From Candidatus Bathyarchaeia archaeon (GTDB lineage Archaea; Thermoproteota; Bathyarchaeia; Bathyarchaeales; Bathycorpusculaceae), in the NCBI GenBank assembly GCA_050010515.1, contig JBEKKX010000005.1:14698-78697 (forward strand): a stretch of 64,000 bases of DNA. The letters are read 5' to 3'. The notes beneath the pieces were generated by a model, which saw only the letters and a list, made by a program, of their open reading frames with translations, was not told the origin of the DNA and ran no database searches. Below are positions 30,281 to 57,951 of this stretch, piece after piece. Within the stretch, counting starts at the first letter, position 1. Each line of letters opens with the position of its first letter. The position numbers were made by a program, and so were the translations under genes.

Positions 30281-30310
30281 AAGTCTTAAATTCGCATAGC
30301 ACTAAATAAT
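30281..30310 (+). promoter_or_regulatory. Cassette-head promoter motif, copy A
   Basis: AAGTCTTAAATTCGCATAGCACTAAATAAT upstream of ATG 30332. Confidence 0.6.
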
Positions 30311-30331
30311 TAAAAATGGGAACGGTAGGCT

Positions 30332-30865
30332 ATGGATAAAGAGGAAATTTTGTATTATGCAAATAGATATGATAAAGATTATTTAGAAAAGTGGATGCGA
30401 ACAGAACGAGAGTTGGGTGATAAATTTCGAAAAACAAAAGAAGTAACAAAAGAGGATTTGGTTAAAATAGTGTGGTGGAAATTTGAAGGGTTGAAGGGTC
30501 GAAGGGATAGAATACTGAAATATGTTGAGAAAGATAGTGATGAGGAAGTATGTGCGTGTTCTCAGGTTTTTAATCTTACTACCCGTGAAGATTCATTTAG
30601 GATAGGCGTTCTTGACAATCTTCAAGGTGTTGGTCCAGCTTTAGCAAGTGTTGTTTTAACGTTCTATGACCCTAAAAACTATGGTGTGTTTGACATCCAC
30701 GTTTGGAGAGAATTCTTTGGGAAAGAGCCTAAGAACCTCTTTGGAAGTAGCCGTTATTACATTACACTTCTCTCTGAACTTAGAACGATAGGAAACAAAT
30801 ATGGCTTAAATGCAAGGACTGTAGAAAAAGCCTATTTTAAGAGAAACTATGAAAATTCAAAATAA
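30332..30865 (+). CDS. HhH-motif (HhH-GPD-like) protein
   Basis: LQGVGPALASVVL...YGVFDIHVWR. Confidence 0.7.
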   Translation: MDKEEILYYANRYDKDYLEKWMRTERELGDKFRKTKEVTKEDLVKIVWWKFEGLKGRRDRILKYVEKDSDEEVCACSQVFNLTTREDSFRIGVLDNLQGVGPALASVVLTFYDPKNYGVFDIHVWREFFGKEPKNLFGSSRYYITLLSELRTIGNKYGLNARTVEKAYFKRNYENSK

Positions 30866-30900
30866 ACAACATTCAATATACCAATTGGGTTTTCGTGGAT

Positions 30901-30930
30901 AAGTCTTAAATCTGCACAACGTAGAAATAG
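30901..30930 (+). promoter_or_regulatory. Cassette-head promoter motif, copy B
   Basis: AAGTCTTAAATCTGCACAACGTAGAAATAG; ATG 6 nt later. Confidence 0.85.
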
Positions 30931-30936
30931 CATAAC

Positions 30937-31428
30937 ATGACAGAAAAAGTTGCTAAAGAGTTTAAAGGCAATGTTGGCATTTTTCTTGTAGCATCAAAAC
31001 TCTCAGCAATGAATATTATCGCCTTAACAACTTCAAGAAATACTAAAGGTTACGATATCGTAGCTCTTAATCCTGAGACCAATAAAGGTAAAGGAATACA
31101 AGTTAAATGTGCTGATGTTCTATCCAATAAGAAAGAAGATTTCCCAGTAGTTAGTGCATTATTCAGAACTATGCATGAAGAACTTTGCAAAAAAATTATT
31201 TGCGATTTTGTGTTTGTTGATATCTCTAATATTGAACAACCAAAATTTTTCATACTTTCAAAAGATGAAGTAATTAATATCATAGAAACAAACACTAAAG
31301 TATGGTTAGCAAGGAAACACAGAAAACCACCTGAAGAAAGCAACAAGAAAATACTTCATACAATCAAACGGTCAGAGATAGAGAAATATGAGAATAATTG
31401 GAATCAAATTCTGCAAGATTTATTATAG
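30937..31428 (+). CDS. PD-(D/E)XK-type nuclease
   Basis: G.FLVA..L, RNTKGYDIVA, IQVK motif. Confidence 0.75.
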   Translation: MTEKVAKEFKGNVGIFLVASKLSAMNIIALTTSRNTKGYDIVALNPETNKGKGIQVKCADVLSNKKEDFPVVSALFRTMHEELCKKIICDFVFVDISNIEQPKFFILSKDEVINIIETNTKVWLARKHRKPPEESNKKILHTIKRSEIEKYENNWNQILQDLL

Positions 31429-31677
31429 CTATATTGTATAATCTTTAGGTGTTTTTTTTGGATAAAGATTTTTTAGCAGGTCATAAACCAAATTGCCTAA
31501 TATTATCGCTATAAACAAGAAAAATCCACTCCACCAATCTATTTGATACCTGTTTGAAATGTGTGATACTCCTAAAAAGTTAATCGCAAGAATGCTAAAC
31601 ACAACTATAGCAGAGATACAAACTGCAAAATATAGAAATTTAGTGATTTTGGATGCTGTGTTCTTTTTTGAGTTCAT
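31429..31677 (-). CDS. Small two-TM membrane protein
   Basis: Two hydrophobic segments; diverged cassette head (copy C) at 31689-31719 on the minus strand. Confidence 0.6.
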   Translation of the reverse strand: MNSKKNTASKITKFLYFAVCISAIVVFSILAINFLGVSHISNRYQIDWWSGFFLFIAIILGNLVYDLLKNLYPKKTPKDYTI

Positions 31678-31846
31678 ATCTAACTATTCTATTTACATTG
31701 GTGTGGGGTTTTAAGGCTTTTGTGATGGGTTGGTTATACCCTACCCCTTTGTATTTTTGACTTTTTGTCGGTTTATGGCTTTTTAATCAACTGTTTAATC
31801 AGCGAAAAACATAAAAAGAATTAAAGAAAAGAAGGGGAAAAGGGGT

Positions 31847-33082
31847 TTAGAAGTCTACTTTTTCGGGTCTTTTGCGTTCCTTTTCCTCTTTCAGTTTTTG
31901 CTGTTCCTCAAAAGTAGCTTTTAATTGGTTAAAGTCTGTGAGCATTTTGTTTATACTTAAACCGTTATCAAGGCATCGCTGTTCAAGTAACGTGATTCTT
32001 TTCTCCTTTTGCTCCAGAACTTTTTCCAATTCTGTTTTCTGTTGGTTTAGTTCTGCTTTAAGTTCTCCTGTTGTTTCTGGAATCAGATAAGGCAAACACA
32101 TCTTAAACAGCGTTAGATAATCTGAGTCGGGATGATTCGCATATGTTGCTTCTATTCCGCTTGGCTTATGAGAGGTTAAGGGTTTAGCTAAGTTAATGTT
32201 GGCTTTTATCTGTGGCTTTTCAAGAACTGTGCTTATTACGTCTCGAAAATCGTGAGGCGAAAAGTGTTTTTTAATATCGTCTCCAAAAGCAACTATTGAA
32301 GCATTTAGGAATATTGCGTTAAACTGCCTTAATGCACCACCAACAACCGAACCGTAAGGATTGCTATAATAACACATGAACAGCGGCGAATCCTCATCAT
32401 AGCTGATTTCTCTTTCTTTGAGTTCTTTTTTGTAGTCTTCAAATTTTTCATTCGCATAACTATGTAGAAAACCGATATGTTTAGTTCCTTTGTACTTGCC
32501 TTTTCCGTGACCTTTCAGCCTTGCCGACTCAATACTTATCCAATACGGAACTTCTTTATCATCTAAGGGTTTTAGGTCTCTCATTTTTAGCGTTCTTAAT
32601 GTTCCTTTTCGAACAGGGCAACTTTCAAGAAACCAAACTAAAAATTTGTCTCTTCTGCACGTCATAGCATTTTCAAGTTTTACGCAATCATCAACGCTTG
32701 GAGTTCTCTTTTTAGCTTCAGGAACTTCTATGTTCTCTCCGACATCTTTAGCTAAGTCTCTGCCTCTTGTAGATGAGTAAAAACTCTTAACCGCTGTTAA
32801 AACTCCCAATTGTACGCTTGGAGTTAAACCGCTATTATCCAGATAGTTCTCTAATAATTCCTCTGCTTGGAATTCTTTTTCTGTTGCTGGATTCTGTAGA
32901 CCTTCAAGTTTTAACGCAATCAATTCATCGGGATTCTTTTTAGCCCAATCGCAATAGTGTTTAAGTTTTCTGGTATACTCTGTTTCTGTGTCACCGCTAT
33001 TCTTTAATTTCTTATTGTAAAAGTTTTGACCGCTAACGAAACTTAATAGCCAAGTCTTATTATCGTCTGTCATTCGACTCAA
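31847..33082 (-). CDS. Tyrosine recombinase/integrase
   Basis: Catalytic R (PVRKG), K (RLKG), HxxR (PHDFR), H (TSHK) and Y (ATYA); C-terminal coiled coil. Confidence 0.88.
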   Translation of the reverse strand: MSRMTDDNKTWLLSFVSGQNFYNKKLKNSGDTETEYTRKLKHYCDWAKKNPDELIALKLEGLQNPATEKEFQAEELLENYLDNSGLTPSVQLGVLTAVKSFYSSTRGRDLAKDVGENIEVPEAKKRTPSVDDCVKLENAMTCRRDKFLVWFLESCPVRKGTLRTLKMRDLKPLDDKEVPYWISIESARLKGHGKGKYKGTKHIGFLHSYANEKFEDYKKELKEREISYDEDSPLFMCYYSNPYGSVVGGALRQFNAIFLNASIVAFGDDIKKHFSPHDFRDVISTVLEKPQIKANINLAKPLTSHKPSGIEATYANHPDSDYLTLFKMCLPYLIPETTGELKAELNQQKTELEKVLEQKEKRITLLEQRCLDNGLSINKMLTDFNQLKATFEEQQKLKEEKERKRPEKVDF

Positions 33083-33211
33083 AGATAGTCACCCCTTGAA
33101 AAGTTAAAGTTTTCCTTGATTCTCGGGCAAAAATTCAATATGTGACTTGATACGGGGACAAATACTTTAATAAATCACGTGTGAACTTCACATAACGACG
33201 GAGCCTACAGA

Positions 33212-34492
33212 TTGATTCTCGATGACATACCGCAAGTTATTTATGCGCCTGTAAAAGTGTTCAAGAAAATAATTGAGAACCCAAAATACTTGGGCGCAAT
33301 AATAATACTGCTTCTTTTCATAGTCGTACAAATTGGATATGGCTATTCACAGATCTCGAAAACTTACATAGAAGATACATCGCCTACGATTGGTCATTTA
33401 TCAAACTACATCAATGCAACAGCAACATCATCAAATGGAACATTATGGAGCGCTGGTACTGGCACAGCCTTAAGCAACAATTATGCTGACTTCTACAACT
33501 ATAGTGTTTACATTCCAGCGATTGCAACTAACTATAGTTTATTTGGAAACAACAGCCTAGAAATTAACTCCACAAACACTAACAACGTTTCGGCTACCTT
33601 AAGCAACGCTTTCGATGTGAACTGCGGTGCTGGCGGCTTTGAAAACTTTTCAATGACACTAAAAATGGTGGAGCCTCAGGTTGCGCCTCAAAGTGCAGCC
33701 TTAACTCTCTACTCACCTAACGATTCAAACTATTACATATATGACTTAACTTCTTCCTTATCAAACACGACAGCAATTGGGTTATGGACCAACTTAACCA
33801 TTCCAGTTGGACCAGCTGCCCAAGGTTGGACTAGTGGCGGCACACCAAACTGGGGCAATGTGACAGCTCTAAAACTAGACTTTACATACCCAGCTAATTC
33901 CAACATAACCATACTTATTGGTGCCTTATTCTTCCATGGCCAATATCAAACGTTCATTCAAGCCTCTGGCACTGGGATCATAATCTCGTTCTTAGAGGCC
34001 TACTCTTTACAGTTCATTTTTACCTGGTTCATATTAACAGGGCTAATTTACATCTTCTTCAAATTGTCAAAAGCCAAAATCACTTGGAAACCTCTTTTTA
34101 TCGCTTTAGCTTTTGCTTTGTTTGTGATGGTTATTAGATCAATAATAAACCTTGTTGCGACATTTACCTTACCCACAGTTTATTATCCCTTTGACGTGTC
34201 GCTTGGGGTAACCTCTAATCCTTTTGGAGCTTTATATGTCCCTGCACAAGCAGCAGTCACCTTTACAGCGCAGTCTCAAGCCGTTCTCAAAAATATTATA
34301 GCAAAGACTTCAGTTTTCAACTTTGTAGTTGAAGCGATGTTTTTCATTTCTTACGTTTGGTTAGGTGCCTTATGCACAATAATTGTTGGAACACTCAAAC
34401 CAGAGTTTTCAATGATAAAGAAGATAGCGATTTCCGCTGTCAGCATAGCAGCTACGCTTTTGCTATTGCTTCTGCTGGTAGGTATTGTTTAA
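33212..34492 (+). CDS. Yip1-like membrane protein with a large extracellular domain
   Basis: N-terminal 'P.K.FK.I.ENP' plus TM helix, N/T-rich middle, several C-terminal TM helices. Confidence 0.65.
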   Translation: MILDDIPQVIYAPVKVFKKIIENPKYLGAIIILLLFIVVQIGYGYSQISKTYIEDTSPTIGHLSNYINATATSSNGTLWSAGTGTALSNNYADFYNYSVYIPAIATNYSLFGNNSLEINSTNTNNVSATLSNAFDVNCGAGGFENFSMTLKMVEPQVAPQSAALTLYSPNDSNYYIYDLTSSLSNTTAIGLWTNLTIPVGPAAQGWTSGGTPNWGNVTALKLDFTYPANSNITILIGALFFHGQYQTFIQASGTGIIISFLEAYSLQFIFTWFILTGLIYIFFKLSKAKITWKPLFIALAFALFVMVIRSIINLVATFTLPTVYYPFDVSLGVTSNPFGALYVPAQAAVTFTAQSQAVLKNIIAKTSVFNFVVEAMFFISYVWLGALCTIIVGTLKPEFSMIKKIAISAVSIAATLLLLLLLVGIV

Positions 34493-34638
34493 ACCAGTAC
34501 TAATGCGTCTAAAATCAACTTCCAGTTTTTTCCTTCCTACTCGCTGATGCAAACATAGCTAGGCAAGATTTATATGATTGAAACTCACTTTTGCAAGTGA
34601 AAACCCTCAGTAGGGAATCACAGTTTAGGTGACTTAAT

Positions 34639-34932: not shown

Positions 34933-35121
34933 AAGCCATTTACCCGTTGTCTATCACGCTTTTGGAATTGTCTTTTTAATTATATTTACTCTTTAACGAC
35001 GGCACTTGTAATTTTAGATGGTAATGCCCTTTTAGCCTGTTATGACAGCGTCATATATTGTAATTAAAGAGAAACAGCAAGCCCCTAAAATCCGTTTCAA
35101 AAAACTGTTTCAAAATAACAG

Positions 35122-43601: not shown

Positions 43602-44528
43602 ATGACAAACTCTTTGGGCGAAGTTTTCATTCTAAAAACTACAGATAGAGCAACAGGTGTCCCTGCATTGCTCAACAAGTTTGGCTTAGGTGATTATTCT
43701 GGGAAGCAGGTGGCTTTGAAGGCGAATTTTAACAGTGCTGACCCGTTTCCAGCATCAACCCACCTTGACACTTTAAGAGCCATAGTGCAAACCTTAAAAA
43801 ACGCTGGAGCGAGCGACGTAACGTTGGCTGAACGCAGCGGCATGGGCGACACCGAGCAGGTTCTGGAGAAAATGGGCGTTTTAGCTCTATCAAGGGAACT
43901 AGGGTTTAAGGCTGTTGTCTTAAATAACGTGGGCAAGGAAGACTGGCTTAAAGTTGAACGAGGAGGCACCCATTGGGCAAGAGGATTCTACATGGCGAAA
44001 GTATTCCATGACGCTGACAAAGTTGTCCAGACATGCTGCCTAAAAACGCACAGGTTCGGCGGCCACTTCACGCTTTCGCTAAAGAATTCCGTGGGTTTAG
44101 TGGCAAAAAAGGTTCCTGGCGGAATGTACGATTACATGTGGGAACTGCATACTTCACCCTATCAGCGGCAGATGATTGCGGAAATAAACAACAATTACAA
44201 CGTGGACTTTGTTTTAATGGATGGAATAAAAGCATTCACAACCGGCGGTCCTGACCGAGGCACGTTGGTTGAGCCTAACCTTTTGCTTGCAAGCCGGGAC
44301 CGAGTGGCCATAGACGCAGTCGGAGTAGCGATCCTCAAAATGTACGGAGCTAAAGGCAAAGTTGGCGAAGCAGACGTTTTCGAGCAAGCCCAGCTACGAC
44401 GCGCAGCAGAGCTGGGTTTCGGAGTGAAATCAGCCGCCGAAATACAGTTGACGCCTCTAAATGATGAAAGCAGAGTTGACGCAGAGCGGATAGAGCGGGT
44501 TCTTAAAGCGCAGGTTGCTACGCATTAA
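43602..44528 (+). CDS. DUF362 family protein
   Basis: V.LKAN, LKTH...FTLSLKN..G, MDG, D.VAID. Confidence 0.85.
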   Translation: MTNSLGEVFILKTTDRATGVPALLNKFGLGDYSGKQVALKANFNSADPFPASTHLDTLRAIVQTLKNAGASDVTLAERSGMGDTEQVLEKMGVLALSRELGFKAVVLNNVGKEDWLKVERGGTHWARGFYMAKVFHDADKVVQTCCLKTHRFGGHFTLSLKNSVGLVAKKVPGGMYDYMWELHTSPYQRQMIAEINNNYNVDFVLMDGIKAFTTGGPDRGTLVEPNLLLASRDRVAIDAVGVAILKMYGAKGKVGEADVFEQAQLRRAAELGFGVKSAAEIQLTPLNDESRVDAERIERVLKAQVATH

Positions 44529-45192
44529 CACTCATGAGTATGTCTGGCTTGTCGCTGGCTATGCCGTCCACGCCTTTCTTAGCGTATTCCTCGACTTCTT
44601 CTGGGTTGTTTATAGTCCAAACTATCACTTTTAAACCGTTTTCATGGGCTTTCTGGACATTAGCGGTATGCGTGAATCTGTAGAGGGCAAAAAGATAGTT
44701 CGCTTTCAGTTCTAACGCTGCTTTAATTGGGTTCTTGTGCTTCGCGTAAATCAAGCCTGTCTCGATGTCCTTGTTTAATTCCCTAACTTTCTTTAGCGCA
44801 TCTTCAAGAAAAGAAGTGATAACAACATTCTTCTCTATGCCTTTCTTATGCACTGTTGAAAGCACTTGCTCTTCAATGCCCGTTTCCTTAAGCTCAACAA
44901 ACACCTTCACCTTCTTATCCAAAAAATCCAGCGTTTCCTCCAAAGTCGGAATTTTCTCGCCTTTCTCAGCGGAAAAGCTTTTGATTTCTTTAAGCGTAAG
45001 CTCACTTACTAAGCCTTCGCCGTTGGTTGTCCGCTTAACATCTGCGTCGTGAATGACGACAAGTTGGTTGTCTTTGGTCTTTCTAACATCCAACTCAACT
45101 GCATCTACGCCGATTTCTAATGCCTTCTTAAAACTCGCCAACGTATTCTCAGGCGCATAAGCCCTGGCGCCCCTATGACCAATACGCAACAT
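44518..45192 (-). CDS. Glycerophosphodiester phosphodiesterase
   Basis: IGHRG, PENT, ELDV, HD, VWT.N, GVDGI.SD. Confidence 0.93.
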   Translation of the reverse strand: MLRIGHRGARAYAPENTLASFKKALEIGVDAVELDVRKTKDNQLVVIHDADVKRTTNGEGLVSELTLKEIKSFSAEKGEKIPTLEETLDFLDKKVKVFVELKETGIEEQVLSTVHKKGIEKNVVITSFLEDALKKVRELNKDIETGLIYAKHKNPIKAALELKANYLFALYRFTHTANVQKAHENGLKVIVWTINNPEEVEEYAKKGVDGIASDKPDILMSVNA

Positions 45193-45251
45193 AATAAATT
45201 GATTCTTCAACGAAGAATAATACTTTTTGCAAGTTCCCTCTTTAGAGAGAT

Positions 45252-45281
45252 AAGTCTTAAATCTGAAAAGCGTAGAAATAG
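45252..45281 (+). promoter_or_regulatory. Cassette-head promoter motif, copy D (downstream gene apparently truncated)
   Basis: AAGTCTTAAATCTGAAAAGCGTAGAAATAG, ATG 6 nt later, then the nrdR-upstream repeat copy. Confidence 0.85.
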
Positions 45282-45311
45282 CCTAACATGGAAAAAACAG
45301 CCTTATATCTT

Positions 45312-45490
45312 TGCGCAAGCCTTAACCTAACTAGTATTTTATGCCAAAATGGTTTTTTTGAGCAAAAAAGGCGTTTCTAAAGTATTTTATTTTATCTTTT
45401 TTGTTTATTTTTTATGGGGAGTGTTCATGTCTCTATAGACAATATTTCAAATTTAATGTGGAAATACCTTATATATGCAAAAAACGTAGT
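45312..45490. repeat. About 180-bp dispersed repeat, copy 2
   Basis: Similar to 13362..13539; TATA retained, first NrdR box degenerate. Confidence 0.85.
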
Positions 45491-45833
45491 CATAATTTGG
45501 CATTAATGCCCCAAGGCAAGGCAGAGGAATGGAGTGTGTTACCATTCGTCTGTCTTGTCCCCTTTTTGAGTTTACTAAACCTTGAAATATTTTAGGCGAC
45601 TTTAACATATAAAAACTTTGGGTAAACGTTTCTGTCCAAGACAATGGTGTAAATCACCAGTCCAACCATTCAAAATTAATATCAAAATGTCAATTGACTT
45701 TTGAGACAATAACACACATGCTTAAAACTAAATTGCTTCAAATAATATATGATAAGTGTGATATCATGGTTAAAGATGACCGAGGCAAGAAATTTAGTTG
45801 TCTTAAATGTGGGGCTATGTTTAAGTGACCTGA

Positions 45834-45977
45834 ATGAGAGCAAAAGAAGTTTACTTATGCCATGAATGTCAGAAAAATATTGAAGTTGGTGATGACTTCA
45901 TAAGGTTCAAGGCTTTTGGGGTCGTTAGTTACTATCATAAAAAGTGTTTCAAAGAAACCCAGAAAAAACTAAGTTAG
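45834..45977 (+). CDS. Small CxxC...HxxC zinc-finger protein (47 aa)
   Basis: MRAKEVYLCHECQKNIEVGDDF...YYHKKCF. Its TAG stop lies within the junction repeat. Confidence 0.65.
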   Translation: MRAKEVYLCHECQKNIEVGDDFIRFKAFGVVSYYHKKCFKETQKKLS

Positions 45978-46073
45978 CTATCATGTAAAGAATTATTATC
46001 GAGTACATTCAAGGATTAGGAACTTCGCTATTATAGAGTAGACAAGTCTTAAATCTGAAAAGCTCTGAAATAG
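45971..46073 (+). repeat. About 103-bp junction repeat with CGAGTACAT core and cassette head E
   Basis: Aligns end to end with 47214..47316. Confidence 0.9.
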
Positions 46074-46092
46074 ACTAAACAGGGAATATCTT

Positions 46093-46524
46093 ATGAGTCC
46101 CATAGTGCCTAATTACGGTCCAATTCCAAAGTTAGAAGGTTACTTAGAAGACGCAGTAAAAACGAATTATTGGTTTTATGCTATTGTTTTCTCTGCTATC
46201 GAAGTTGAAAAATATGGCTGTGACAAAATTAGAAGCCATATGACCTCTCTAAAAGCTGAACCTTCTTTTATTGAAGCTATTTTAAAAAGAGTAAATTTGT
46301 TAACTGTAGCTGACTGTTTACTAGAATTAAAGTTCATTGAGAAAGAAGAGTACAAAACAATAACCGAACTTAATGCAATAAGAAATGATTGTGTTCATAG
46401 AACAGCAAAAGACCCAAGTATCAATGGTACAGAAGCTACCAAAAAATATGAACCACTAGTGAAGGAAGCAATAACTATTCTAAAAGAGAAACTTGATGCT
46501 GTTAGAATGTTTGCTGTTCCATAG
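46093..46524 (+). CDS. HEPN-like protein
   Basis: All-alpha appearance; RxxxxH motif in ELNAIRNDCVH. Confidence 0.6.
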   Translation: MSPIVPNYGPIPKLEGYLEDAVKTNYWFYAIVFSAIEVEKYGCDKIRSHMTSLKAEPSFIEAILKRVNLLTVADCLLELKFIEKEEYKTITELNAIRNDCVHRTAKDPSINGTEATKKYEPLVKEAITILKEKLDAVRMFAVP

Positions 46525-46604
46525 TGTTCTTCCTTGTTTTTGTAAACGGTTAGGGCTATTAACGAGTATTTTTGTTCTCAATACTGCTATTTTTCATTGA
46601 TAAT

Positions 46605-46635
46605 AAACCTTAAATCTGCATAAGGCACAGAATAG
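46605..46635 (+). promoter_or_regulatory. Cassette-head promoter motif, copy F
   Basis: AAACCTTAAATCTGCATAAGGCACAGAATAG; upstream TTTTCATTGAT is shared with copy H. Confidence 0.65.
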
Positions 46636-46653
46636 ACCAACTAAGGAAAATTT

Positions 46654-47220
46654 ATGAAAAGCTCGACTTACTATTTTTTAACTGTAATTATATCAATTTT
46701 TTTCTTTGCTGGAATGATTTTAACCACTCGATTTAATCCAAATATTAATTATGAAACTGCTTCCAACAGCACCAGTTCGTTTTTTGGAAATATACATTCT
46801 ATAGATTACGAAACAATACCTACCATCATTAACGGAATGACTACAATAACGAGTATTATTATAGGTTTTAGTGGCGCTATTATTGGGCTTGTTTATCGTG
46901 AAAATATGAAGAGTAAAGCACTAAGAAGAATTCTTCATGTATTTACCTTTGAATCTATAGCTGCTCTGGGTGTTCTGTTGGTTGTTTATTATTCTTTATT
47001 AGTCGGAGACTTTACCGATGCTTTAAGGTACTCTTTGGTTACAGTCCTCTTTTCGATATGCATTTTTTCTGTTTGCTTGGTTAGCGTTTTTTACAGAATA
47101 GATAAGCTGAAAGATGCAGAATTGCAAAATATGCAACCACCAACAAAAAGCTTGTCGAAATCATCGGAAAAAGAAGAGACTCAAAAAGAGGCTGAATTGC
47201 AAGAAAAAATTATAAGTTAG
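46654..47220 (+). CDS. Multi-TM hypothetical membrane protein
   Basis: About 4 hydrophobic helices and a charged tail; the stop lies within the junction repeat. Confidence 0.7.
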   Translation: MKSSTYYFLTVIISIFFFAGMILTTRFNPNINYETASNSTSSFFGNIHSIDYETIPTIINGMTTITSIIIGFSGAIIGLVYRENMKSKALRRILHVFTFESIAALGVLLVVYYSLLVGDFTDALRYSLVTVLFSICIFSVCLVSVFYRIDKLKDAELQNMQPPTKSLSKSSEKEETQKEAELQEKIIS

Positions 47221-47316
47221 CTACCATAGTAAACAACTCTTACCGAGTACATTCAAGGGTTAGGAACTTCGCTATTTAGAGTAGATAAGTCTTAAATCTA
47301 AAAAGCGTAGAAACAG
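47214..47316 (+). repeat. About 103-bp junction repeat with cassette head G
   Basis: Copy of 45971..46073; head AAGTCTTAAATCTAAAAAGCGTAGAAACAG at 47287-47316. Confidence 0.9.
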
Positions 47317-47322
47317 ATTAGC

Positions 47323-47907
47323 ATGGAAAATAAAAACAAAGAAGACACTGAAGATGCAAGAGCAAATAATGAAGACGAATGGCAACGGTTATCTTATCAA
47401 GAAATTGGTGAAGACAGACGACACTTCGACTCTATGTTGTGGGAAATTCCAACTGCAATCTTCTTGGTTGATTCCTTTTTATTAGGATTAGTCAGTTCTT
47501 TATCAGGTAAGGGCTTTTATCTGCTTATTCTTCAAGAAGTCTTGTTAGGTTTCGCTTCAGCTTTTACAATTCTCTTGACAGTGACCCTACGTAAAGTTGC
47601 TAAAAGGTCAATTGATAGAATGGAGTTGCTTAAACAAATGGAAGGGCAAACGAAAGAACAAACGAAAGAGCAAAGGGAAGTACAACTACCACCGATAAAA
47701 CACAAACGTTTTCCTGAAGAAAAAGGATACCTTACATGGAAGGTTGGAGTTCTCGTGTGTGGGTTGCTAATTTTGTTTGCTTTTGTCCTAATTGGTCTAA
47801 TGATTGCTCTATTTTTTTTACCCTCACATATTTTCAACCGTTACTCTTTCTATTCTGCAAAATGCATTAAACTGTTAGGGCTATTACCGAGTACATTCAA
47901 GGGTTAA
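47323..47907 (+). CDS. Three-TM hypothetical membrane protein
   Basis: YQ....DRRHFD..LW followed by TM helices; the 3' end reads through a junction core. Confidence 0.65.
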   Translation: MENKNKEDTEDARANNEDEWQRLSYQEIGEDRRHFDSMLWEIPTAIFLVDSFLLGLVSSLSGKGFYLLILQEVLLGFASAFTILLTVTLRKVAKRSIDRMELLKQMEGQTKEQTKEQREVQLPPIKHKRFPEEKGYLTWKVGVLVCGLLILFAFVLIGLMIALFFLPSHIFNRYSFYSAKCIKLLGLLPSTFKG

Positions 47908-48370
47908 GTATCTTCTTAATCTCCTTTTATCAAGTGCGGGGGGAGCTTACTCTATGGAGAGAATATTAAATAAAAACTGTAAATACTGATAAGAAAAGGC
48001 ACTAATTAACAATTTTTCATTTAATTCAATTTCCCATATATCAGTTCCATACCTGAAAGTAAATTATCTTTCCCAGATCACTTAATATCGGGACAAGGCA
48101 TCGCATTTGAAGGTCTCAAACGCTTTAAGGACATGTGACTTGTAACGAAAGTTTGCTGTCAAAACGTATATGCATTTTCCCCCGGGAAGGTAGTAGCCTA
48201 CACGTATATTCAATCCTATTGAAAACCATGACAATAGAAGAAGGCCCAAATAGCAAAGGTTACTTTAAGCAAAACCAAAAGTTGTGACTCTTTTTGCTAA
48301 AAAAAGCACTTGCGGAATCTACTGATAGAGTAACAATTTTTTTAAAGAAAATTAGCAAGGAGGGATAGGG

Positions 48371-48416
48371 TATCAATTTAGCAACTGAATTTCTCTAGCA
48401 AAATTGACAGGTAAAG
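48371..48416. repeat. About 45-bp island right-end repeat, copy 1
   Basis: TATCAATTTAGCAACTGAATTTCTCTAGCAAAATTGACAGGTAAAG matches 59023..59067. Confidence 0.85.
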
Positions 48417-48496
48417 AACGTAATTTTTGCATTTCTCTATAGACGTAGAGTGGGTGGCTATATTCTTTGAAAACACTATGGACACAAACATGATTT

Positions 48497-49327
48497 TTAT
48501 GCTGCTGCATCCAGTGTTTTTAGCATGCTTCCTGACCGGTAGCCTTCCAAATCAACTGTTACATACTTGAATCCTAATTTTTTCAAATCTTCAGCTACCC
48601 TGTCCAAAACATCGACATTGCAAAAGAGCGCTCTTTCAGTTTTTCCAACTTCTATTCTTGCTAACCCGTTATGGTCTCTAACTCGGATCTGCTTAACCCC
48701 AGTTATCGCTTTTACGGCTTGCTCTGCCTTGTCGATTCTACTCAACTTCTCAGCCGTAATTCTCTCATTAAACGGTATCCTCGAAGCCAAACACGCTAAA
48801 GCAGGCTTGTCATGAACGCTAAGCCCCATGGTTTTGGCTACTTGGCGAATCTCATCCTTACTAAACTTGTTAATCATCCATGGACTATACACGCTTTTTA
48901 CTTCCTGAACAGCTTTGAATCCTGGTCTGTGATCGTTTAAATCGGTGAAGTTTGTGCCTTCAAAAACCGCTTTGAACCCGAGTTCATGCGCAAAGTCAAT
49001 TAGGGATTTGAGTAATTCTTTTTTGCAGTAGTAGCAGCGGTTTTCAGGGTTTTTGCTAAAATTTTCGTTGGATAACTCGTCAGTTTCAATCACATGCAGT
49101 TTGATGCCTATGTCCTTGGCTGTTTTTTTAGCATCCGTTAGCTCTTCAGACGTGTATGTTGGAGATTGAGCTATAACGGCCACAGCCTTCTCGCCTAGAA
49201 CCCCGTGGCTTACAGCAGCTAATGTTGAGCTGTCCACGCCTCCAGAAAAAGCGATTACCACGCCGTCCTTTCCTTTTTCCTTGATGAAAGCTTTGAGTTC
49301 TTCAAGTTTACGATTTAAGTCTTCCAT
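48497..49327 (-). CDS. larE: ATP-dependent sulfur transferase LarE
   Basis: PP-loop FSGGVDS, RCYYCK, D.RPG, ACLASRIP, RVR.H, GYRSGS. Confidence 0.93.
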   Translation of the reverse strand: MEDLNRKLEELKAFIKEKGKDGVVIAFSGGVDSSTLAAVSHGVLGEKAVAVIAQSPTYTSEELTDAKKTAKDIGIKLHVIETDELSNENFSKNPENRCYYCKKELLKSLIDFAHELGFKAVFEGTNFTDLNDHRPGFKAVQEVKSVYSPWMINKFSKDEIRQVAKTMGLSVHDKPALACLASRIPFNERITAEKLSRIDKAEQAVKAITGVKQIRVRDHNGLARIEVGKTERALFCNVDVLDRVAEDLKKLGFKYVTVDLEGYRSGSMLKTLDAAA

Positions 49328-49341
49328 GCAAATCACGTCGT

Positions 49342-52017: not shown

Positions 52018-52020
52018 AAG

Positions 52021-52521: not shown

Positions 52522-52589
52522 ATAGCTTCCCTCACCTACTATTATTGTTTAAACGTAAATTTAAATATCAACCATCCGCTATAATTACG

Positions 52590-53111
52590 TCAAAAGGTTT
52601 CTTTATGCATTATTTCACTTACTGGTCTTCTGCTTCTGGCTGCGGGTGCCTCGTTTGGATATCCTACTGGAATCAAGGCTATTGGCCGCATTTCTTTAGG
52701 GGCTTTAATGGCTTTCCTTATTTCGTCTTCTTTGAATGCTCCAATCCAGCATGAACCTAAACCAAGCGAGTAAGCGGTTAACAGGATATTTTGAATTGCA
52801 GCCGCGGTGTCCTGAATGCAAAACAATGATTTACCACGTTCAGCATAGCTTTGTTCAGCCAGCTTCTCATCAGCGCAAACCACAAAAACAACTGATGCTT
52901 CTTCAAGGTCTTTTTGCCCAAAAGCCGCCATAGAAAGATTTCGCTTCATTTTCTGCGAGCTTACAACTACAAATGTCCACGGTTGAACGTTTCCTGCGGA
53001 TGGCGCCCAGCGTGCGGCTTCAAGAAGTTTTTCAATAATGTCTTGGGTTACGGCTTGTTTTTTGAATACTCTTATGCTTCTTCTATTCTTGATAATTTCC
53101 AGAAGGTCCAT
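52590..53111 (-). CDS. Nitroreductase family protein
   Basis: RRSIR, APSAGN.QPW, QN.LL.A..LGLGSCW, GYP. Confidence 0.92.
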   Translation of the reverse strand: MDLLEIIKNRRSIRVFKKQAVTQDIIEKLLEAARWAPSAGNVQPWTFVVVSSQKMKRNLSMAAFGQKDLEEASVVFVVCADEKLAEQSYAERGKSLFCIQDTAAAIQNILLTAYSLGLGSCWIGAFKEDEIRKAIKAPKEMRPIALIPVGYPNEAPAARSRRPVSEIMHKETF

Positions 53112-53490
53112 TACCTTAGACCACTCCGCAACTAAATATTCAGTTGAATGGATTAAAAAAAGTTTCTTTATGGTCAATGTGTTTTAGCGGGGTTCTGTGA
53201 AGTCTCCATTTGGTAAGTTTCGCTGTGAAAAATCGTTGGGTGGGTTATTTGGTTCGATTAACTTTCGGTTTATGGCTCTTTTAAGGCACTTATGATAACT
53301 TCTTCAAGTTTATTCATAATTGGAGCTAAGTCTTCTGAACTTTTTAGGCCGGCAATTACAGCTTTCTCAGAAGCCCAGAAAACAATTTCAGCGTACAGAG
53401 ACCTCATTCTAACAAACCTTATATTTCAATCGAACAAACTTACCTCCAAAAAAGATTCAGTTCTCATAGTACATACAAGAGAGGGGAGGT

Positions 53491-55029
53491 ATGCGGCTCT
53501 TGAAAAGCAGTTGTAACTTCAGATTAGCTTTCTTCATTTTTGCCATTTGCTACCTCAGCATTCTTATTGGCTTTCTAATTCTGAACCTTTCAAACATGCC
53601 TATCCAATGGGATGAAGCCGCCCATCTTGACAACGGGCTATTCCTCAAACTTGGAATGTTCAAGCAGTTCTCGGGTAACCTGTTTTATCCACCGCTTTAT
53701 GACGCCCTAACCTTCCTGTCCTACAACATTTTTGGTGTAAGCGTTGTTTCCGCCAGAATGGTTGACGCTGTCTTCTCCGTTTTGCTTCTATGGGTAGTTT
53801 TTGAGTTCACTTACAAAGTCTATAACGGCAAAACTGCATTGTTAGGCTCAATTTTTTTAAGCCTAATGCCCGGCTACTTTGAAGCTTCTCACATGGCCAT
53901 GTTAGACATAATGGTAACATTCTTTTTTGTCCTTTCGATCTTCTTCTTTTACCTGTGGCTACAAACCCATAAAGACAGAATGCTGATCTTTACAGGGCTA
54001 ACCTTAATCCTTGGCTTCTTAGCCAAGTACCAAATTGTAGTGGCTATGCTTGTAATGCTTTTTGCCATAGTGATTTTCTCTAAGAGCCAGCTCAAAAGAC
54101 CTTTTTCAAGAAAACTCTACATTGCAATAATCTCAGTGCTGTTAGCAATAGCAGCTTATCTAATCTACAGCCTTCAGTCCTACTTAGGAATGTGGCTAAA
54201 CGCTATTGGAATGACCACTACAGGAAGCCAAACCATAACACCCGTCTATTACCTAATTGAAATGAATAGCCTATACTCCACCATTCACCCAATTTCGCTT
54301 CTAATGTATATCTTAGGCTTTCTCGGTTTGGGAATATTTGCTATTAGAAGACAAAACCCTGACAAACTCCTTCTGACATGGTTCATTACAGTTTATGTTT
54401 TTTACACTCTAGTTAACAACAAAAATTGGCGATACGTTCTTCCTTTGTTCCCAGTTTTAGCCATCGCAGCGGCGGTTTTTGTCACATATACATACACGGA
54501 ACTGCGGAGCCTCAACAGAAAAACTTTAACTAAAATCGGTGCTTCAATATTGATAGCTTTAACATGCCTATCCATGTTCTACAGTGTAAATGACACCATT
54601 TATTGGACAAACTCTGATAAAGCACCTTTTGAATTAGAACAAGCCGTTGAATATACAATAGCCCACGACAGCACAAACCAATCGATAATGGTGCTTATTC
54701 CTGATAACTACTTCAGTGAAGGCATAATAGAATTTTACCTTCTGAAAGACGGAGGACCCAAAATTCAAGTGTACAATTATCCTTGGTCAAGAATTATAGA
54801 TCCCTCCTTCAACATCACGGTTCTAATCAGCCGCTGCAAGGAGTACAACGTGAAATTTCTCTTCACAACAGAATTTGGCGGGAACAATTTAGACTATTTC
54901 AACTCAACGGTCACCTTAATGGATATCTATGCCCAATTGTATAGCTCAAACAATTTCACTCATGTAACACCTGAGCAGACTTTTGGTAAACCGCCCCTAA
55001 GCATCTACATATTAAACTACACAGGGTAA
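53491..55029 (+). CDS. PMT/ArnT-type (GT-C) membrane glycosyltransferase
   Basis: QWDE..H, YPPL, WRY..PLFP; paralog of 18784..20469. Confidence 0.85.
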   Translation: MRLLKSSCNFRLAFFIFAICYLSILIGFLILNLSNMPIQWDEAAHLDNGLFLKLGMFKQFSGNLFYPPLYDALTFLSYNIFGVSVVSARMVDAVFSVLLLWVVFEFTYKVYNGKTALLGSIFLSLMPGYFEASHMAMLDIMVTFFFVLSIFFFYLWLQTHKDRMLIFTGLTLILGFLAKYQIVVAMLVMLFAIVIFSKSQLKRPFSRKLYIAIISVLLAIAAYLIYSLQSYLGMWLNAIGMTTTGSQTITPVYYLIEMNSLYSTIHPISLLMYILGFLGLGIFAIRRQNPDKLLLTWFITVYVFYTLVNNKNWRYVLPLFPVLAIAAAVFVTYTYTELRSLNRKTLTKIGASILIALTCLSMFYSVNDTIYWTNSDKAPFELEQAVEYTIAHDSTNQSIMVLIPDNYFSEGIIEFYLLKDGGPKIQVYNYPWSRIIDPSFNITVLISRCKEYNVKFLFTTEFGGNNLDYFNSTVTLMDIYAQLYSSNNFTHVTPEQTFGKPPLSIYILNYTG

Positions 55030-55285
55030 GCTAAACTTCACATTATTGATAGACTTGCATAACTTAACTTTCTTTCAATCCTGCTCCCAAAATTTTTATC
55101 GCAATTTCGGTTGCTGGAACTGCCCATACTTTGCCTTTTGTCACCTTAAGTTTTCTTTTAGGTAGCTGCCTAACATTCAAGTTGACAATTTACCAAATGT
55201 TTTTTCACATGACCCCAAACCAAACGGTGACTTCACAGAACCCTTTAGCGTAAGAGTCTTAAGTTTTGTTGTCGATTAATGTTTT

Positions 55286-55348
55286 GGATGATGAGCACTA
55301 GAGTCACAGAGCTTGCGCAGTGATAAGGACTCGACGGGCGAACTGACA
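55286..55348 (+). ncRNA. Candidate C/D-box sRNA
   Basis: C box ATGATGA (55288), 12-nt guide, D' CAGA (55307), C' GTGATAA (55320), guide, D box CTGA (55343). TATA-like CTTAAG about 28 nt upstream. Confidence 0.6.
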
Positions 55349-55441
55349 CGTTTAAGCGGAAAACTTAATCAATAATGTAGCTGTGAAAAACTAAGTTAAA
55401 CACAAGAAATTGGCGTGACCTGAATCGAGGTGAACATGAAA

Positions 55442-55723
55442 ATGGTTGAAATGAAAGTCGATACTTCAGATCTTAAAGGTGACGAAGCTAAATTAATCGA
55501 TAAGCTAGCGGATTTCCTTAAGGAGAAAACAGGCGGAGAAGTGGCGACAGACGCAAAAATCTTAACGGTGAAAGGTGAAGGCGAAGGGCTAAGCAAAAAA
55601 TACGTACGCATAACTTTGAAAAAGTTCCTGCACAAACACGAACTCTCAGAGCTTTTCAGAGTAACAAGCCCAGAAGAGAACACGCTCAAAATTAAAAAGA
55701 GAAAACTTGAAGAAGAAGATTAA
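55442..55723 (+). CDS. rpl22e: Ribosomal protein eL22-like
   Basis: L.DFLKEK and LSKKYVRITLKKFLHKHELSELFRV resemble eukaryotic eL22 SKRYLKYLTKKYLKK..LRDWLRV. GAGGTG RBS upstream. Confidence 0.75.
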   Translation: MVEMKVDTSDLKGDEAKLIDKLADFLKEKTGGEVATDAKILTVKGEGEGLSKKYVRITLKKFLHKHELSELFRVTSPEENTLKIKKRKLEEED

Positions 55724-55821
55724 ATAGTCTCTTTTTCCCTGAACTTTAGTTAATTCTTTATTTTTCCCTTCTAAATCAGGCAAGCTGGAACAAGTGGGAA
55801 CGGTACTTTAACGGTTTAGAA

Positions 55822-55999
55822 ATGCCGACAACTACGGATATTATTTTAATTGGTGCTAATGGTTCTTTTCCAGAAAAAGTTAATCCCGGACCCCCATCAA
55901 GGCTTAATTTTGGTTGGTACTGTTTGGACATGCAAAGAAATGAATCCAGATGATAGTGCTAAAGAATGTGAATTTTGCCATGCTAAGAGAAAATATTAA
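55822..55999 (+). pseudogene. Frameshifted RanBP2-like zinc-ribbon microprotein
   Basis: GWYCLD / CKEMNPDDSAKECEFCHAKRKY* split by one extra base near 55929. Confidence 0.55.
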
Positions 56000-56047
56000 G
56001 TTCCTTCATAGCCATAGGGTTTAGTTACTCCATAGCTAGCCCATGAC

Positions 56048-56089
56048 AGGGGAAAAGGTCTTATCTTCACATTCTTCACCTTTTCCCCT
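56048..56089. terminator. 12-bp stem-loop between convergent genes
   Basis: AGGGGAAAAGGT...ACCTTTTCCCCT. Confidence 0.5.
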
Positions 56090-56119
56090 TAAACAGTTTT
56101 TATTAAATTAGAAGTTTCT

Positions 56120-56641
56120 TTAAGCTTGTGGTAACTTTTCTTCTATGTGATTGATTAGGTTTACAAGAAGCTCCTTTTTTATGTCCCTACCAATTTGCCA
56201 TCTTAAAGCATAGTAATCAACAAATGCGCAGTCTAATCGCGTTTGATATTCGGCATATGTATCCTCTTGTGCCATTCCCTTCACAAATAAGCCAATTTCA
56301 AACGCTCCCTCGTCAAATATTCTTTTGAACTTAGTATCTAAGAACGTCCAAGCTTTTTCTGTTTTGCTTGAATGATTGCTAAAAGCTTCGTTTTTCTTAA
56401 TGACTAAGGGGTCACTGTTGTCACTTGTCATTTTGTCTCTAAAAATCAGTATTTTGCCCAATTCTTCCAATGCAAATTGAACGCTAATATAAGCATGACT
56501 TAGCCTATTTTCACTAATAATAAGCCTTGCATCATTTAAGAAAGCCAGAACATTTTGTTTGCAGAGGTCAATTCCTTTAGGCATTTCTGCTCTAGGAATA
56601 ATTCTATCATCGTTTACCTTTTTCAAGAGTACTAACTCCAA
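56120..56641 (-). CDS. AbiV-like (HEPN-related) protein
   Basis: N...L.DA..., A.....FALEELGK, NHSSK, R...FVDY pattern. Confidence 0.65.
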   Translation of the reverse strand: MELVLLKKVNDDRIIPRAEMPKGIDLCKQNVLAFLNDARLIISENRLSHAYISVQFALEELGKILIFRDKMTSDNSDPLVIKKNEAFSNHSSKTEKAWTFLDTKFKRIFDEGAFEIGLFVKGMAQEDTYAEYQTRLDCAFVDYYALRWQIGRDIKKELLVNLINHIEEKLPQA

Positions 56642-56748
56642 AACCTAATCGTTTTATTTTACTATAAGAAACCTCCCATGTACTCGGTAATTAAGAAGGA
56701 AATTTGGAATATTTTATATCTGTAAAGTTGGAAAAGGGTAGTGATAAA

Positions 56749-57114
56749 ATGAACAAAGAACATTTAGCCTTAGTCGGTGTAGTTATAGCTTTAGCTGTTA
56801 TTCTAAGCGTAGTATCCATTTATGTGGTTTACGTAGATACTCCAGCGAACCAGTTTGAGCAAAAACTGAAAAATATACCTAGCCCAGACAAAGAGATACC
56901 TGCCGTAGAGTTTGTTTCAATGACTCAAGCAGAATTAAATGAGAACCTAAAAACATACACAGATCAGACACAGTTTGAGAAGGTTTCAGAATCACAATTT
57001 ATTCAAGAAATACAGAATAATAATAGAGATGGCTATACAAGTTTTATAGCAAGACTCGATAACACCTTTTACCTTATGGCTGAAGGTCAAACAAGTGTTT
57101 GTTGCACACCTTAA
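56749..57114 (+). CDS. Membrane-anchored hypothetical protein
   Basis: N-terminal TM helix; degenerate cassette head at about 56708-56736. Confidence 0.6.
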   Translation: MNKEHLALVGVVIALAVILSVVSIYVVYVDTPANQFEQKLKNIPSPDKEIPAVEFVSMTQAELNENLKTYTDQTQFEKVSESQFIQEIQNNNRDGYTSFIARLDNTFYLMAEGQTSVCCTP

Positions 57115-57160
57115 AGATTCAGTTCTACTTAGCACAGATTACTAAGTTTTCATTGATGAT

Positions 57161-57190
57161 AAGTCTTAAATCTGCACAGCGTAGAAATAG
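57161..57190 (+). promoter_or_regulatory. Cassette-head promoter motif, copy H
   Basis: AAGTCTTAAATCTGCACAGCGTAGAAATAG, 29/30 identical to copy B 26 kb away. Confidence 0.88.
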
Positions 57191-57210
57191 AGTAAATGAC
57201 GTGATGAAAA

Positions 57211-57876
57211 ATGGGTTTGGCTTCAGAGATAGCATTGCTTATTATATTGCTTATTTATTTCTCGACATTTTACGGACTTGCCTTAAAAAAGGGCAGAAAA
57301 TACTTGGAGTCATATCCTCATGGAAAAGATAATAAAGGCTATTTGTTTCAATTCCAAGATTTTTCACTAACATTGGCTGGTTTAGCTGTTACGGCAATTG
57401 CCTTGATTGTAAGTATAAAATTTGAGGGGGGCTTTTCTTCATTAGCAAGTTTTACTGAAACAATTTTATTCTTTTCTATTTCGTTTGTAACCCTTGCGCT
57501 TTCATGGAACCTAATACGGTTTCCAAAAGGAATTTACCACTTTGTAAGTGGCGTTCTTAGTGACATAGGCGTTCTATCGATAGGGTGTGGTTTACTTGTT
57601 TTCTTTTACAGCCTTAGTACGCTCTCCTTCCTCCCCACCTTTATAATACCAATTACATTTGGACTTTTCATACTGGTCTTTATTATTTTTGCAGGATGGA
57701 ACTTAAGAAGAGACATCAGTTTTTGGTCTTTAACCGAAAATTCTGAGAAGTTAAAAAGTGAAAATGAAGACAAACCACCTAAACAACCAGAAAGTACCGA
57801 GCAAAATTCAAATAATCAAGAAAAAAAAGAAAACGAAAACTGTAAAAATGTGAACGTTTTCGTAAACGTAAGCTAA
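57211..57876 (+). CDS. Multi-TM hypothetical membrane protein
   Basis: About 5 TM helices and a polar tail. Confidence 0.7.
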   Translation: MGLASEIALLIILLIYFSTFYGLALKKGRKYLESYPHGKDNKGYLFQFQDFSLTLAGLAVTAIALIVSIKFEGGFSSLASFTETILFFSISFVTLALSWNLIRFPKGIYHFVSGVLSDIGVLSIGCGLLVFFYSLSTLSFLPTFIIPITFGLFILVFIIFAGWNLRRDISFWSLTENSEKLKSENEDKPPKQPESTEQNSNNQEKKENENCKNVNVFVNVS

Positions 57877-57921
57877 AATAGCCCCTACCCCTCTCATTTT
57901 TTGACTTTTTGAAAGCACGAA

Positions 57922-57951
57922 AAATCTTAAATCTGGACAGCTTAGAAATAG
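57922..57951 (+). promoter_or_regulatory. Cassette-head promoter motif, copy I
   Basis: AAATCTTAAATCTGGACAGCTTAGAAATAG. Confidence 0.8.

Follow-up and report, generated by a model that had tools for sequence, protein, structure and literature searches.

Why does nearly the same 30-nucleotide (nt) sequence stand ahead of unrelated accessory genes at separate places in an archaeal genome? The question is raised by 64,000 nt of a Candidatus Bathyarchaeia archaeon, positions 14,698 to 78,697 of contig JBEKKX010000005.1 (C5:14698-78697 in an assembly of 2.38 Mb, 66 contigs and 42.6% G+C). This whole stretch is called the window here, and the repeated sequence is called the head; handles beginning with G, C and L denote genomes, contigs and loci. 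The original prediction held that heads and the open reading frames (ORFs) behind them are modular cassettes of a promoter plus one gene in three islands, captured and stacked possibly by a tyrosine recombinase encoded at 31847. I analyzed the head in the window, in the whole genome and in related genomes. As argued below, the head is probably a portable core promoter and at the same time the joint at which single-gene modules recombine, most likely by ordinary homologous recombination. The window heads are as follows, where the tail element is a second short sequence described further below.

30281-30310, plus strand: weak, plausibly decayed head (20/30, 14.6 bits), followed 21 nt on by a 177-aa ORF
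30901-30930, plus strand: strong head (29/30, 53 bits) inside the island 1 element, with the ATG of a 163-aa ORF 6 nt on
45252-45281, plus strand: head (30/30, 57 bits) that opens island 2, 8 nt past the end of the flank homology
46044-46073, plus strand: head (27/30), preceded by a tail element (45999-46018) and followed by a 143-aa ORF (46093-46524)
46605-46634, plus strand: weak, plausibly decayed head (19/30, 13 bits), followed by a 188-aa membrane ORF (46654-47220)
47287-47316, plus strand: head (28/30), preceded by a tail element (47243-47262) and followed 6 nt on by the ATG of a 194-aa membrane ORF (47323-47907)
57161-57190, plus strand: head (30/30, 57 bits), followed by a 221-aa membrane ORF (57211-57876)
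57922-57951, plus strand: head (27/30), followed by a 213-aa ORF (57995-58636) with three homologues in other genomes that are also led by heads

Six of the ten copies proposed originally are borne out as strong (27 to 30 of 30 positions). They are the only window matches to the 30-nt consensus with at most three mismatches (30901, 45252, 46044, 47287, 57161 and 57922, all on the plus strand); under the same rule, 100 dinucleotide-shuffled control windows gave no match, and none is expected. The weak copies were compared with random genome 30-mers (best of 13 offsets), for which the 99.9th percentile is 19/30. By this yardstick, the proposed copies at 31689 on the minus strand and at 56708 (18/30 each) are indistinguishable from ordinary promoters. 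Those at 30281 and 46605 are plausible as decayed heads, because the first 11 nt of the former are exact and the latter shares an upstream box with a head of G062. The near-identity of the copies at 30901 and 57161 (29/30) and the ATG placed 6 nt past the motif at 30901, 45252 and 47287 were as claimed. The ORFs behind the window heads are mutually unrelated by BLASTP, and none of these heads precedes a core gene.

Is the head confined to the window? In a position weight matrix scan of the genome, one of the checks proposed at the outset, 40 heads were found at 20 bits or more and none between 16 and 20 bits, while a Markov-shuffled genome yielded no match of at least 16 bits. These heads fall into 21 clusters; in each of the 12 that hold several heads, the heads point the same way. 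Adjacent heads are co-oriented in a ratio of 100 to 2, and of 64 to 2 in further metagenome contigs, at least 120 of which carry the core. Contig ends are close to 29 of the 40 heads (within 5 kb, a zone that makes up 26% of the genome; p about 9e-10), and public peat-metagenome contigs also begin and end at heads.

The scan of relatives found heads in 29 of 60 other species of the genus, where the reversed pattern gave no match, and in none of 16 genomes from other families of the order. As a yardstick of relatedness, the identity of the conserved left flank of island 1 was used. Heads are present in 14 of 14 genomes at 80% flank identity or more, in 13 of 23 at 74-79% and in none of 18 at 73% or less. 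The head distribution follows relatedness and is limited to a subclade of one peat/soil Bathyarchaeia genus. When the exact 26-nt core was searched in a prokaryote collection with one genome per species, 106 stretches were found, 105 of them in Bathyarchaeota/Bathyarchaeia metagenome-assembled genomes, mostly from peat, bog and soil. The remaining stretch (L098) comes from a record titled Limnocylindrales bacterium and probably represents an archaeal contig that was mis-binned. One 26-mer, the most frequent, is seen 50 times, in 27 of 46 assemblies. Two further ideas were rejected. Diverged heads in distant members of the genus were not detected, since a relaxed pattern only matched the counts of its reversed control in five complete or near-complete genomes. 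Concerted evolution toward genome-specific head variants was not seen either, the identity being 0.855 within and 0.875 between genomes in a comparison that is biased by the way loci were collected.

What is the head made of? Its conserved core is (G)ATAAGTCTTAAATCTGNANAGCRTAGAA. The information content is high from -3 to +34, a looser box AAGTTTTCATNGATGAT lies further upstream, and most pairs of head copies in the genome align across 50-65 nt. In order, the head reads as a B recognition element (BRE)-like GATAAG, a TATA-like TCTTAAAT, a fixed spacer CTGNANAGCRT and an AT-rich proximal element AGAAATAG; the BRE and TATA labels follow the usual consensus forms. In the leaderless class, GATAAG/TCTTAAAT precedes the ATG by about 29-32 nt. 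It is always oriented as the following ORF. The sub-motif AAGTCTTAAAT stands inside full heads in 30 of its 32 genome occurrences. The commonest distances from the 30-mer to the ATG are 7 nt (22 cases) and 6 nt (18 cases), together 40 of 154. Since the start codon stands mostly 6-7 nt past the 30-mer, the mRNAs from such heads are predicted to be leaderless. The 3′ end of the head reads GAAATAG CCTAAAC ATG in 112 of 229 heads and differs in the remainder; in 72 heads it is of the AATAGA type, and a purine-rich leader often comes next. The common 8-mers upstream of 621 ordinary genes are TTTAAATA, CTTAAATA, TTAAATCT and AAAGCTTA, and the 5′ part of the head resembles this local BRE/TATA. The ordinary genes are mostly leadered, with a Shine-Dalgarno-like motif in 37% and TATA-like hexamers peaking broadly at -47 to -39. 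The BRE/TATA-like sequence, the orientation and the start-codon distance all fit the archaeal promoter that was proposed originally, and the head is predicted to be active as a complete core promoter. Among the RNA runs searched, none was listed with this stretch. The conservation of its spacer may reflect a bound regulator, a recombination substrate or both.

Some observations touch on the parts of the head and on factors that might read it. A half-head CTGCATAGCGTAGAAATAGCC without the TATA half is present at G000:C22:26862 on the minus strand and could be the scar of a recombination event. Two TFB and two TBP genes are present in the genome (C7:71.2-72.2 kb, C22:41.0-42.0 kb, C44:13.9-14.4 kb and C28:12.7-13.2 kb). 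A head-specific TBP paralogue was considered and rejected; at least two TBPs (up to five by match count) are found genus-wide, with or without heads.

What do the heads lead? At 117 loci of other genomes there are 199 heads, 154 of which have an ORF of at least 40 aa beginning within 135 nt. Together with this genome, the head-driven proteins, mostly orphans, number 187 distinct sequences in 139 families, 112 of them singletons, with a median length of 120 aa and a span from about 40 to over 700 aa. Pfam and PADLOC were run on 150 of the 163 head-driven proteins of at least 50 aa. The Pfam matches fall into 42 families with at most two members each, including GNAT, NosD/beta-helix, NYN, HNH, EVE, 2′-5′ RNA ligase and NAC; DUF4760 is absent from the 25 of these families that were listed. 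This domain diversity and the span of lengths contradict the idea that the cargo is a single fast-diverging paralogous family with a retained 5′ start module. In its favor, small membrane proteins are many: by a crude hydropathy rule, 53% of the head-driven proteins have at least one predicted transmembrane segment, against 25% of 876 background ORFs. I consider such a family scarcely credible.

Defense as a theme of the cargo was also rejected, since PADLOC recognized five families with one member each among the 150 proteins, and the window cassettes gave only weak matches. The head-driven ORF 46093-46524 (plus strand) in island 2 gave a HEPN-like match that is weak (E 0.007) and below the Pfam cut-off. 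With an AbiV-type HEPN gene in island 3, listed below, it hints that part of the cargo is defense-related. The 213-aa cassette protein encoded at 57995-58636 has no Pfam match. Its AlphaFold model, built from four sequences, has a pLDDT (predicted local distance difference test) of 36, and in the ESM Atlas it finds only look-alike clusters of bacterial hypothetical proteins.

Do the genes behind heads differ at the same site in close relatives? The sites concerned are as follows.

28502-33157: island 1, an integrated element of 4.66 kb between 14-bp direct repeats (28488-28501 and 33158-33171)
31847-33082, minus strand: diverged tyrosine integrase of 411 aa at the right end of island 1 (PHROG phrog_1 integrase, E 8e-7)
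44518-45210, minus strand: conserved 230-aa gene, left of island 2
45245-48483: island 2, a hypervariable hot spot between the conserved 230-aa and 279-aa genes
47887-47906, plus strand: tail element core CCGAGTACATTCAAGGGTTA with no head after it, closing the last unit of island 2
48497-49336, minus strand: conserved 279-aa gene, right of island 2
55776-59028: island 3, a hypervariable hot spot between a conserved 97-aa gene and a large iron-sulfur gene (59168-61624)
56120-56641, minus strand: AbiV-type HEPN gene (E 3e-11) in island 3, on the opposite strand and not head-driven

Islands 2 and 3 differ between close relatives, as expected if gene content behind heads is variable at orthologous loci. 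The flanks of island 2 are 85-94% identical in five relatives, and the content between them is unrelated in each. Its length is 2.9 kb in G062, 1.3 kb in G016, 1.5 kb in G052 and 7 kb in G004, and it is split over two contigs in G046; two heads lie there in G062, one each in G052 and G046, and none in G016 and G004. The island 3 site is almost empty in G004 (389 bp), G020 (44 bp), G019 (362 bp) and G044 (427 bp), and in G003, G041 and G075 it holds two genes resembling an ABC transporter pair by appearance, without Pfam. In G046, where the flanks are 93-96% identical, island 3 measures 3.0 kb and contains a strong head, a weak head and a partial head-like copy, which lead three ORFs (245, 155 and 272 aa) unrelated to those of this genome. 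No attachment (att)-like terminal repeats were seen at islands 2 and 3. At a fourth locus outside the window (C3:63826), 2.3 kb including a head unit stand in place of 47-184 bp in relatives. In one peat metagenome, the depth is 60-90 over the flanks and 5-10 over the island contents (contig-based, so that depth is only indicative); thus, the dominant relative in that metagenome lacks these units.

These comparisons bear on the idea of an ordinary regulon, in which a promoter and operator are kept by selection ahead of vertically inherited genes without any gene movement. The whole promoter is conserved including its spacer, which suggests a bound regulator, and some head-gene pairs stay together across genomes, as seen in the downstream-only pairs below. 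Against it, genes are absent or different at the same site in close relatives, neighbors are reshuffled at the head, and more than 130 unrelated families share at least 26 identical bases. Such sharing is beyond point mutation, so the head must have been copied or exchanged. A regulon is contradicted as the sole explanation and highly improbable in that form; it is tenable only as the functional side of the portable promoter and joint favored here.

Where do the units join? Unique heads with at least 330 nt on both sides were compared, and pairs were scored for homology of the upstream flank, the downstream flank or both. In a first set of 220 heads, both flanks were homologous in 10 pairs, only the upstream flank in 34 and only the downstream flank in 52. 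In the full set (426 heads from 306 sources, 344 of them unique), the counts are 21, 79 and 174, so that one-sided homology (253 pairs) stands against two-sided homology in 21 pairs. Upstream-only homology stops at head position +13 to +34 in 39 of the 40 pairs that reach the head (mode +25). Downstream-only homology starts at -23 to +5 in 140 of 141 pairs (mode -2). Control pairs without flank homology are similar just at -1 to +26. Furthermore, units of about 250-280 nt that are flanked by two heads reappear beside different neighbors in other genomes. Because homology switches in the head and the units recur beside different neighbors, the units are reshuffled with the crossover within the common 26-29-bp core. 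In public runs, the contig joints at heads have short sides (26-35 nt) with the sequence between them undefined, the islands partly have low or no cover, and no circles or precise excisions were demonstrated.

Is the crossover site-specific? The sharp switch inside the 26-29-bp core and the strict co-orientation of heads would also be produced by an integron-like system, in which a recombinase recognizes the head, or the head plus the tail, and moves the units, perhaps via circular intermediates. The head with its 3′ tail would then be the site of a dedicated system confined to the subclade. Its promoter would act as the attachment site, and genes would be moved among chromosomes, integrative elements and viruses. 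The rare half-head, the identical cores across species and the subclade confinement, as if a lineage-specific factor were needed, point in the same direction, and the fixed spacer and the tail would also fit a dedicated recombinase. The fixed start-codon distance and the BRE/TATA-like sequence would be needless for a pure recombination site, and I judge this system unlikely on the evidence of the following two paragraphs.

The 31847 integrase, which the original prediction put forward as the agent of capture, is not supported in this role. The 14-bp repeat ACAAATACTTTAAT occurs exactly twice in the window, bounds the 4.66-kb element and is unrelated to the head. The island 1 flanks abut in G046, G016, G062, G041, G052 and G013, and the empty site was aligned in the first three. 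With its integrase, its flanking direct repeats and this empty site in relatives, island 1 is an integrative mobile element, holding one strong head and one or two weak heads. Judged from this arrangement, the integrase appears to insert the whole element at its own 14-bp att site and not the head units. It had no Pfam match at E 0.01 and no meaningful match to solved structures. The expected enrichment of heads next to this integrase family was not seen: the family is present in 19 of 60 genus genomes and heads in 29, with both in 11, heads only in 18, the integrase only in 8 and neither in 23, an odds ratio of about 1.8 that was calculated by hand without a formal test on kin that are not independent. 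The head-rich G046, G063, G013 and G052 gave no match to the integrase. In this genome, 19 of the 21 head clusters have no PF00589 or integrase-paralogue match within 5 kb, and weak tyrosine-recombinase matches, one of them a pseudogene, are about 8-9 kb away from the C2 and C21 clusters. The integrase was thus rejected as the cassette recombinase for its separate att site and its lack of co-occurrence with heads. No recurrent gene family was found beside the arrays among 1,413 clustered ORFs of all head loci, the largest non-cargo family being in 10 loci. As a separate observation, integrase relatives at G000:C2:53507-54724, G004:C22:36521-37738 and G076:C9:178123-179199 adjoin the same conserved gene pair, a 142-149-aa ORF beginning MPKRNDLEQKALHYV and a 213-aa ORF, which suggests a second preferred integration site of the island 1 element family.

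Does the tail provide a structured site? The tail element CCGAGTACATTCAAGGGTTA was found with at most three mismatches in 28 contexts, at the 3′ ends of units in the cases examined, and it stands ahead of only a minority of heads. A head follows 24-39 nt downstream in 13 of the 28 contexts and is absent in 15, as array ends would look in a site-specific system. Because it is read in different frames in different subfamilies, the tail appears to be a DNA-level element. One subtype has an 8-bp inverted repeat, GAGTACAT-N12-ATGTACTC (e.g. at G000:C18 about 160, and in L099, L076 and L097), and could be a 3′-end or terminator-like element. Some of its copies keep the pairing via G-T changes, which would fit an RNA hairpin of the sense strand. 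When 115-nt regions of 20 of the 40 heads were folded, no fold signal was seen (mean z -0.57 on the top and -0.19 on the bottom strand). Three tail-head junctions folded on both strands (z -2.1, -2.0, +1.0, +1.3, +0.9 and +1.35) had no common structure. In Rfam, the only window matches are two tRNAs, and islands 1 and 2 gave no meaningful match even at E up to 1. There is no hairpin or clear dyad in the head. Folding like that of attC was therefore rejected for the heads and the tail-head junctions, in agreement with the lack of attC hairpins stated in the original prediction. Terminal inverted repeats or target-site duplications round the units were not apparent in the head alignments, in which no systematic search for them was made. 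Since no recombinase recurs beside the arrays and no structured site was found, homologous recombination is the simplest mechanism.

Could the heads be brought in by mobile elements as their own promoters? Two head-plus-gene units ride in the 4.7-kb island 1 element, and a related element with the same integrase family in G022 has two heads. A tailed virus, represented by three IMG/VR contigs with portal (E 2e-18) and large terminase (E 4e-41) genes, has a single head. This head leads a 245-aa membrane ORF that is antisense to its neighbors. The heads might thus be leftover promoters of one integrated virus or plasmid family, the islands being decayed mobile elements with their own promoter type, and the intergenic repeats of the halovirus HF2 would be a precedent (PMC8707807). 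It is hard to reconcile with this that the virus has only that one antisense head and that its own genes are head-less. Elements with the same integrase family in G004, G049 and G076 are also head-less. The distance of most clusters from tyrosine-recombinase matches and the lack of att-like repeats at islands 2 and 3 speak against it too, and no replication or structural genes recur in the arrays. Leftover promoters are a quite improbable explanation of the heads.

The portable promoter that doubles as a joint would work as follows. A complete core promoter would head single small accessory genes, with a leaderless start or a short leader. The units are stacked one way in hypervariable chromosomal hot spots of one subclade and are also carried on the integrative element and the tailed virus. 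The core is the same everywhere over 26-29 bp (up to about 55 bp) and for this reason serves as the crossover point; recombination between heads would insert, delete and swap units within and between genomes. The route would most likely be ordinary homologous recombination, helped at some 3′ ends by the tail element. Of the cassettes proposed originally, the co-oriented stacks, the unrelated accessory genes and the exchange at the head stand; the strict pairing of every promoter with one gene has to be loosened, given units without a convincing ORF and homologues without a head.

Several points weigh against this reading. A homology switch within a conserved block would look the same after homologous and after site-specific recombination. 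The same 26-mer across species whose conserved flanks are only 75-90% identical requires either strong selection or frequent exchange. The loci of other genomes were collected by exact motif match, which biases them to intact heads. The head repeat exceeds the assembly word size and breaks contigs of short-read assemblies; the islands are thus poorly assembled and the arrays truncated. Some units have no convincing ORF, e.g. that of 45252, with just a 30-aa ORF and a non-coding repeat of 190 nt behind the head. Homologues of the ORF of the C3:63826 unit are found at other places and head-less in four genomes (G016, G019, G055 and G003). Finally, one of the 40 genome heads lies 113 nt upstream of a core NAC-domain gene.

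Is such a layout known elsewhere? It is known from some phages and has apparently not been described for archaeal chromosomes; no promoter-bounded cassettes in Bathyarchaeia were found in the literature searched, supplementary files aside. Phage morons are independent promoter-plus-gene units that lie between neighboring genes and are transcribed apart from them; they are not known to have a promoter sequence in common or to form chromosomal arrays. The single head unit of the tailed virus resembles a moron, whereas heads share one sequence and form chromosomal arrays.

A close parallel is the promoter early stem-loop (PeSL) cassettes of T4-type phages, whose genes are shuffled via recombination between promoter/stem-loop motifs (PMC2839356, PMC4122927). 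Arbiol et al. (2010) and Comeau et al. (2014) describe short conserved motifs that bear promoters and flank small genes, mostly orphans, in hyperplastic regions. Recombination at the motifs inserts, deletes and replaces genes among close relatives, with end points in the motif as in the heads, and some head junctions likewise combine an upstream inverted repeat of the tail with a promoter. In contrast, heads have an archaeal BRE/TATA instead of a sigma-70 promoter, occupy many chromosomal loci as well as mobile elements, and have a stem-loop only in a subset. Mini-circles were not observed for heads in public assembled contigs, whose joints are ambiguous. Integrons and clusters of attC sites lacking integron integrases (CALINs), including archaeal ones (Ghaly et al. 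2022, PMC9668308), are also co-oriented, hypervariable arrays of single genes with mostly unknown functions, in which one unit may occur in several contexts. Unlike them, head arrays appear to have no IntI, attC hairpin or common promoter (Pc), and each unit starts with its own promoter-like head. The recombinase-associated acquired interbacterial defense (rAID) arrays of Bacteroidales (PMC12247911) share co-oriented short genes (about 100-300 codons), conserved intergenic motifs, variability and mobilization. They are defined by a tyrosine recombinase and immunity cargo, whereas the head arrays are archaeal and have neither a recurrent recombinase nor recognized immunity domains.

With regard to the promoter itself, the roughly 58-bp intergenic repeats of HF2 are proven archaeal promoters conserved over their whole length (Russ, Pfeiffer and Dyall-Smith 2021, PMC8707807). 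Like heads, the class I repeats are whole promoters with BRE, TATA, proximal element and initiator, conserved beyond promoter need; regulators are presumed to bind the conserved stretches other than TATA and initiator (PMC8707807). There are seven copies at conserved positions in one virus, and no joint role is reported, whereas heads number 40 in a cellular genome at variable positions (PMC8707807). Putative mobile promoters are likewise highly similar upstream sequences ahead of unrelated genes, both in one genome and across genomes (Nijveen, Matus-Garcia and van Passel 2012, PMC3575422). These are mostly pairs, lie at -150 to -50 and have no known mechanism, whereas heads are a large arrayed family with mapped breakpoints (PMC3575422). 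On these comparisons, the heads would be an archaeal chromosomal variant of promoter-mediated modular shuffling.

Three other sequences were noticed in and around the islands. A 512-aa multi-pass membrane protein (53491-55029) is encoded in a 2.1-kb insertion of its own (53112-55242). Its flanks are adjacent in G046, and a dominant strain of one peat metagenome joins 53111 to 55243; the nearest DNA matches, in G063 and G050, are not syntenic. A non-coding AT-rich element of about 190 nt has copies at 45303-45490, right after head 45252, and at 13353-13539, upstream of a 135-aa zinc-ribbon ORF (13595-14002, NrdR-like by eye). The two copies are 83% identical, have no Rfam match and have counterparts at 78-84% in G004, G016, G052, G041, G043 and G071. 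A repeat of about 115 nt at G000:C3:64825-64939 (L127 about 6000-6115), with a second copy at C11:28733-28844, occurs in several copies each in G004, G046, G062, G052 and G016 (81-88% identity) and may be a small mobile or regulatory element.

What would it mean? Contigs break at heads, and thus accessory gene content is under-counted in metagenome-assembled genomes. The head would also be a natural portable promoter for Bathyarchaeia, a group without genetic tools. If the reading is true, an archaeal lineage stores single accessory genes, each expressible from the same promoter, and it is at this promoter that the lineage takes up and drops genes and trades them with viruses and integrative elements. 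For uncultivated soil archaea, it would suggest a concrete way in which orphan genes arise and turn over.

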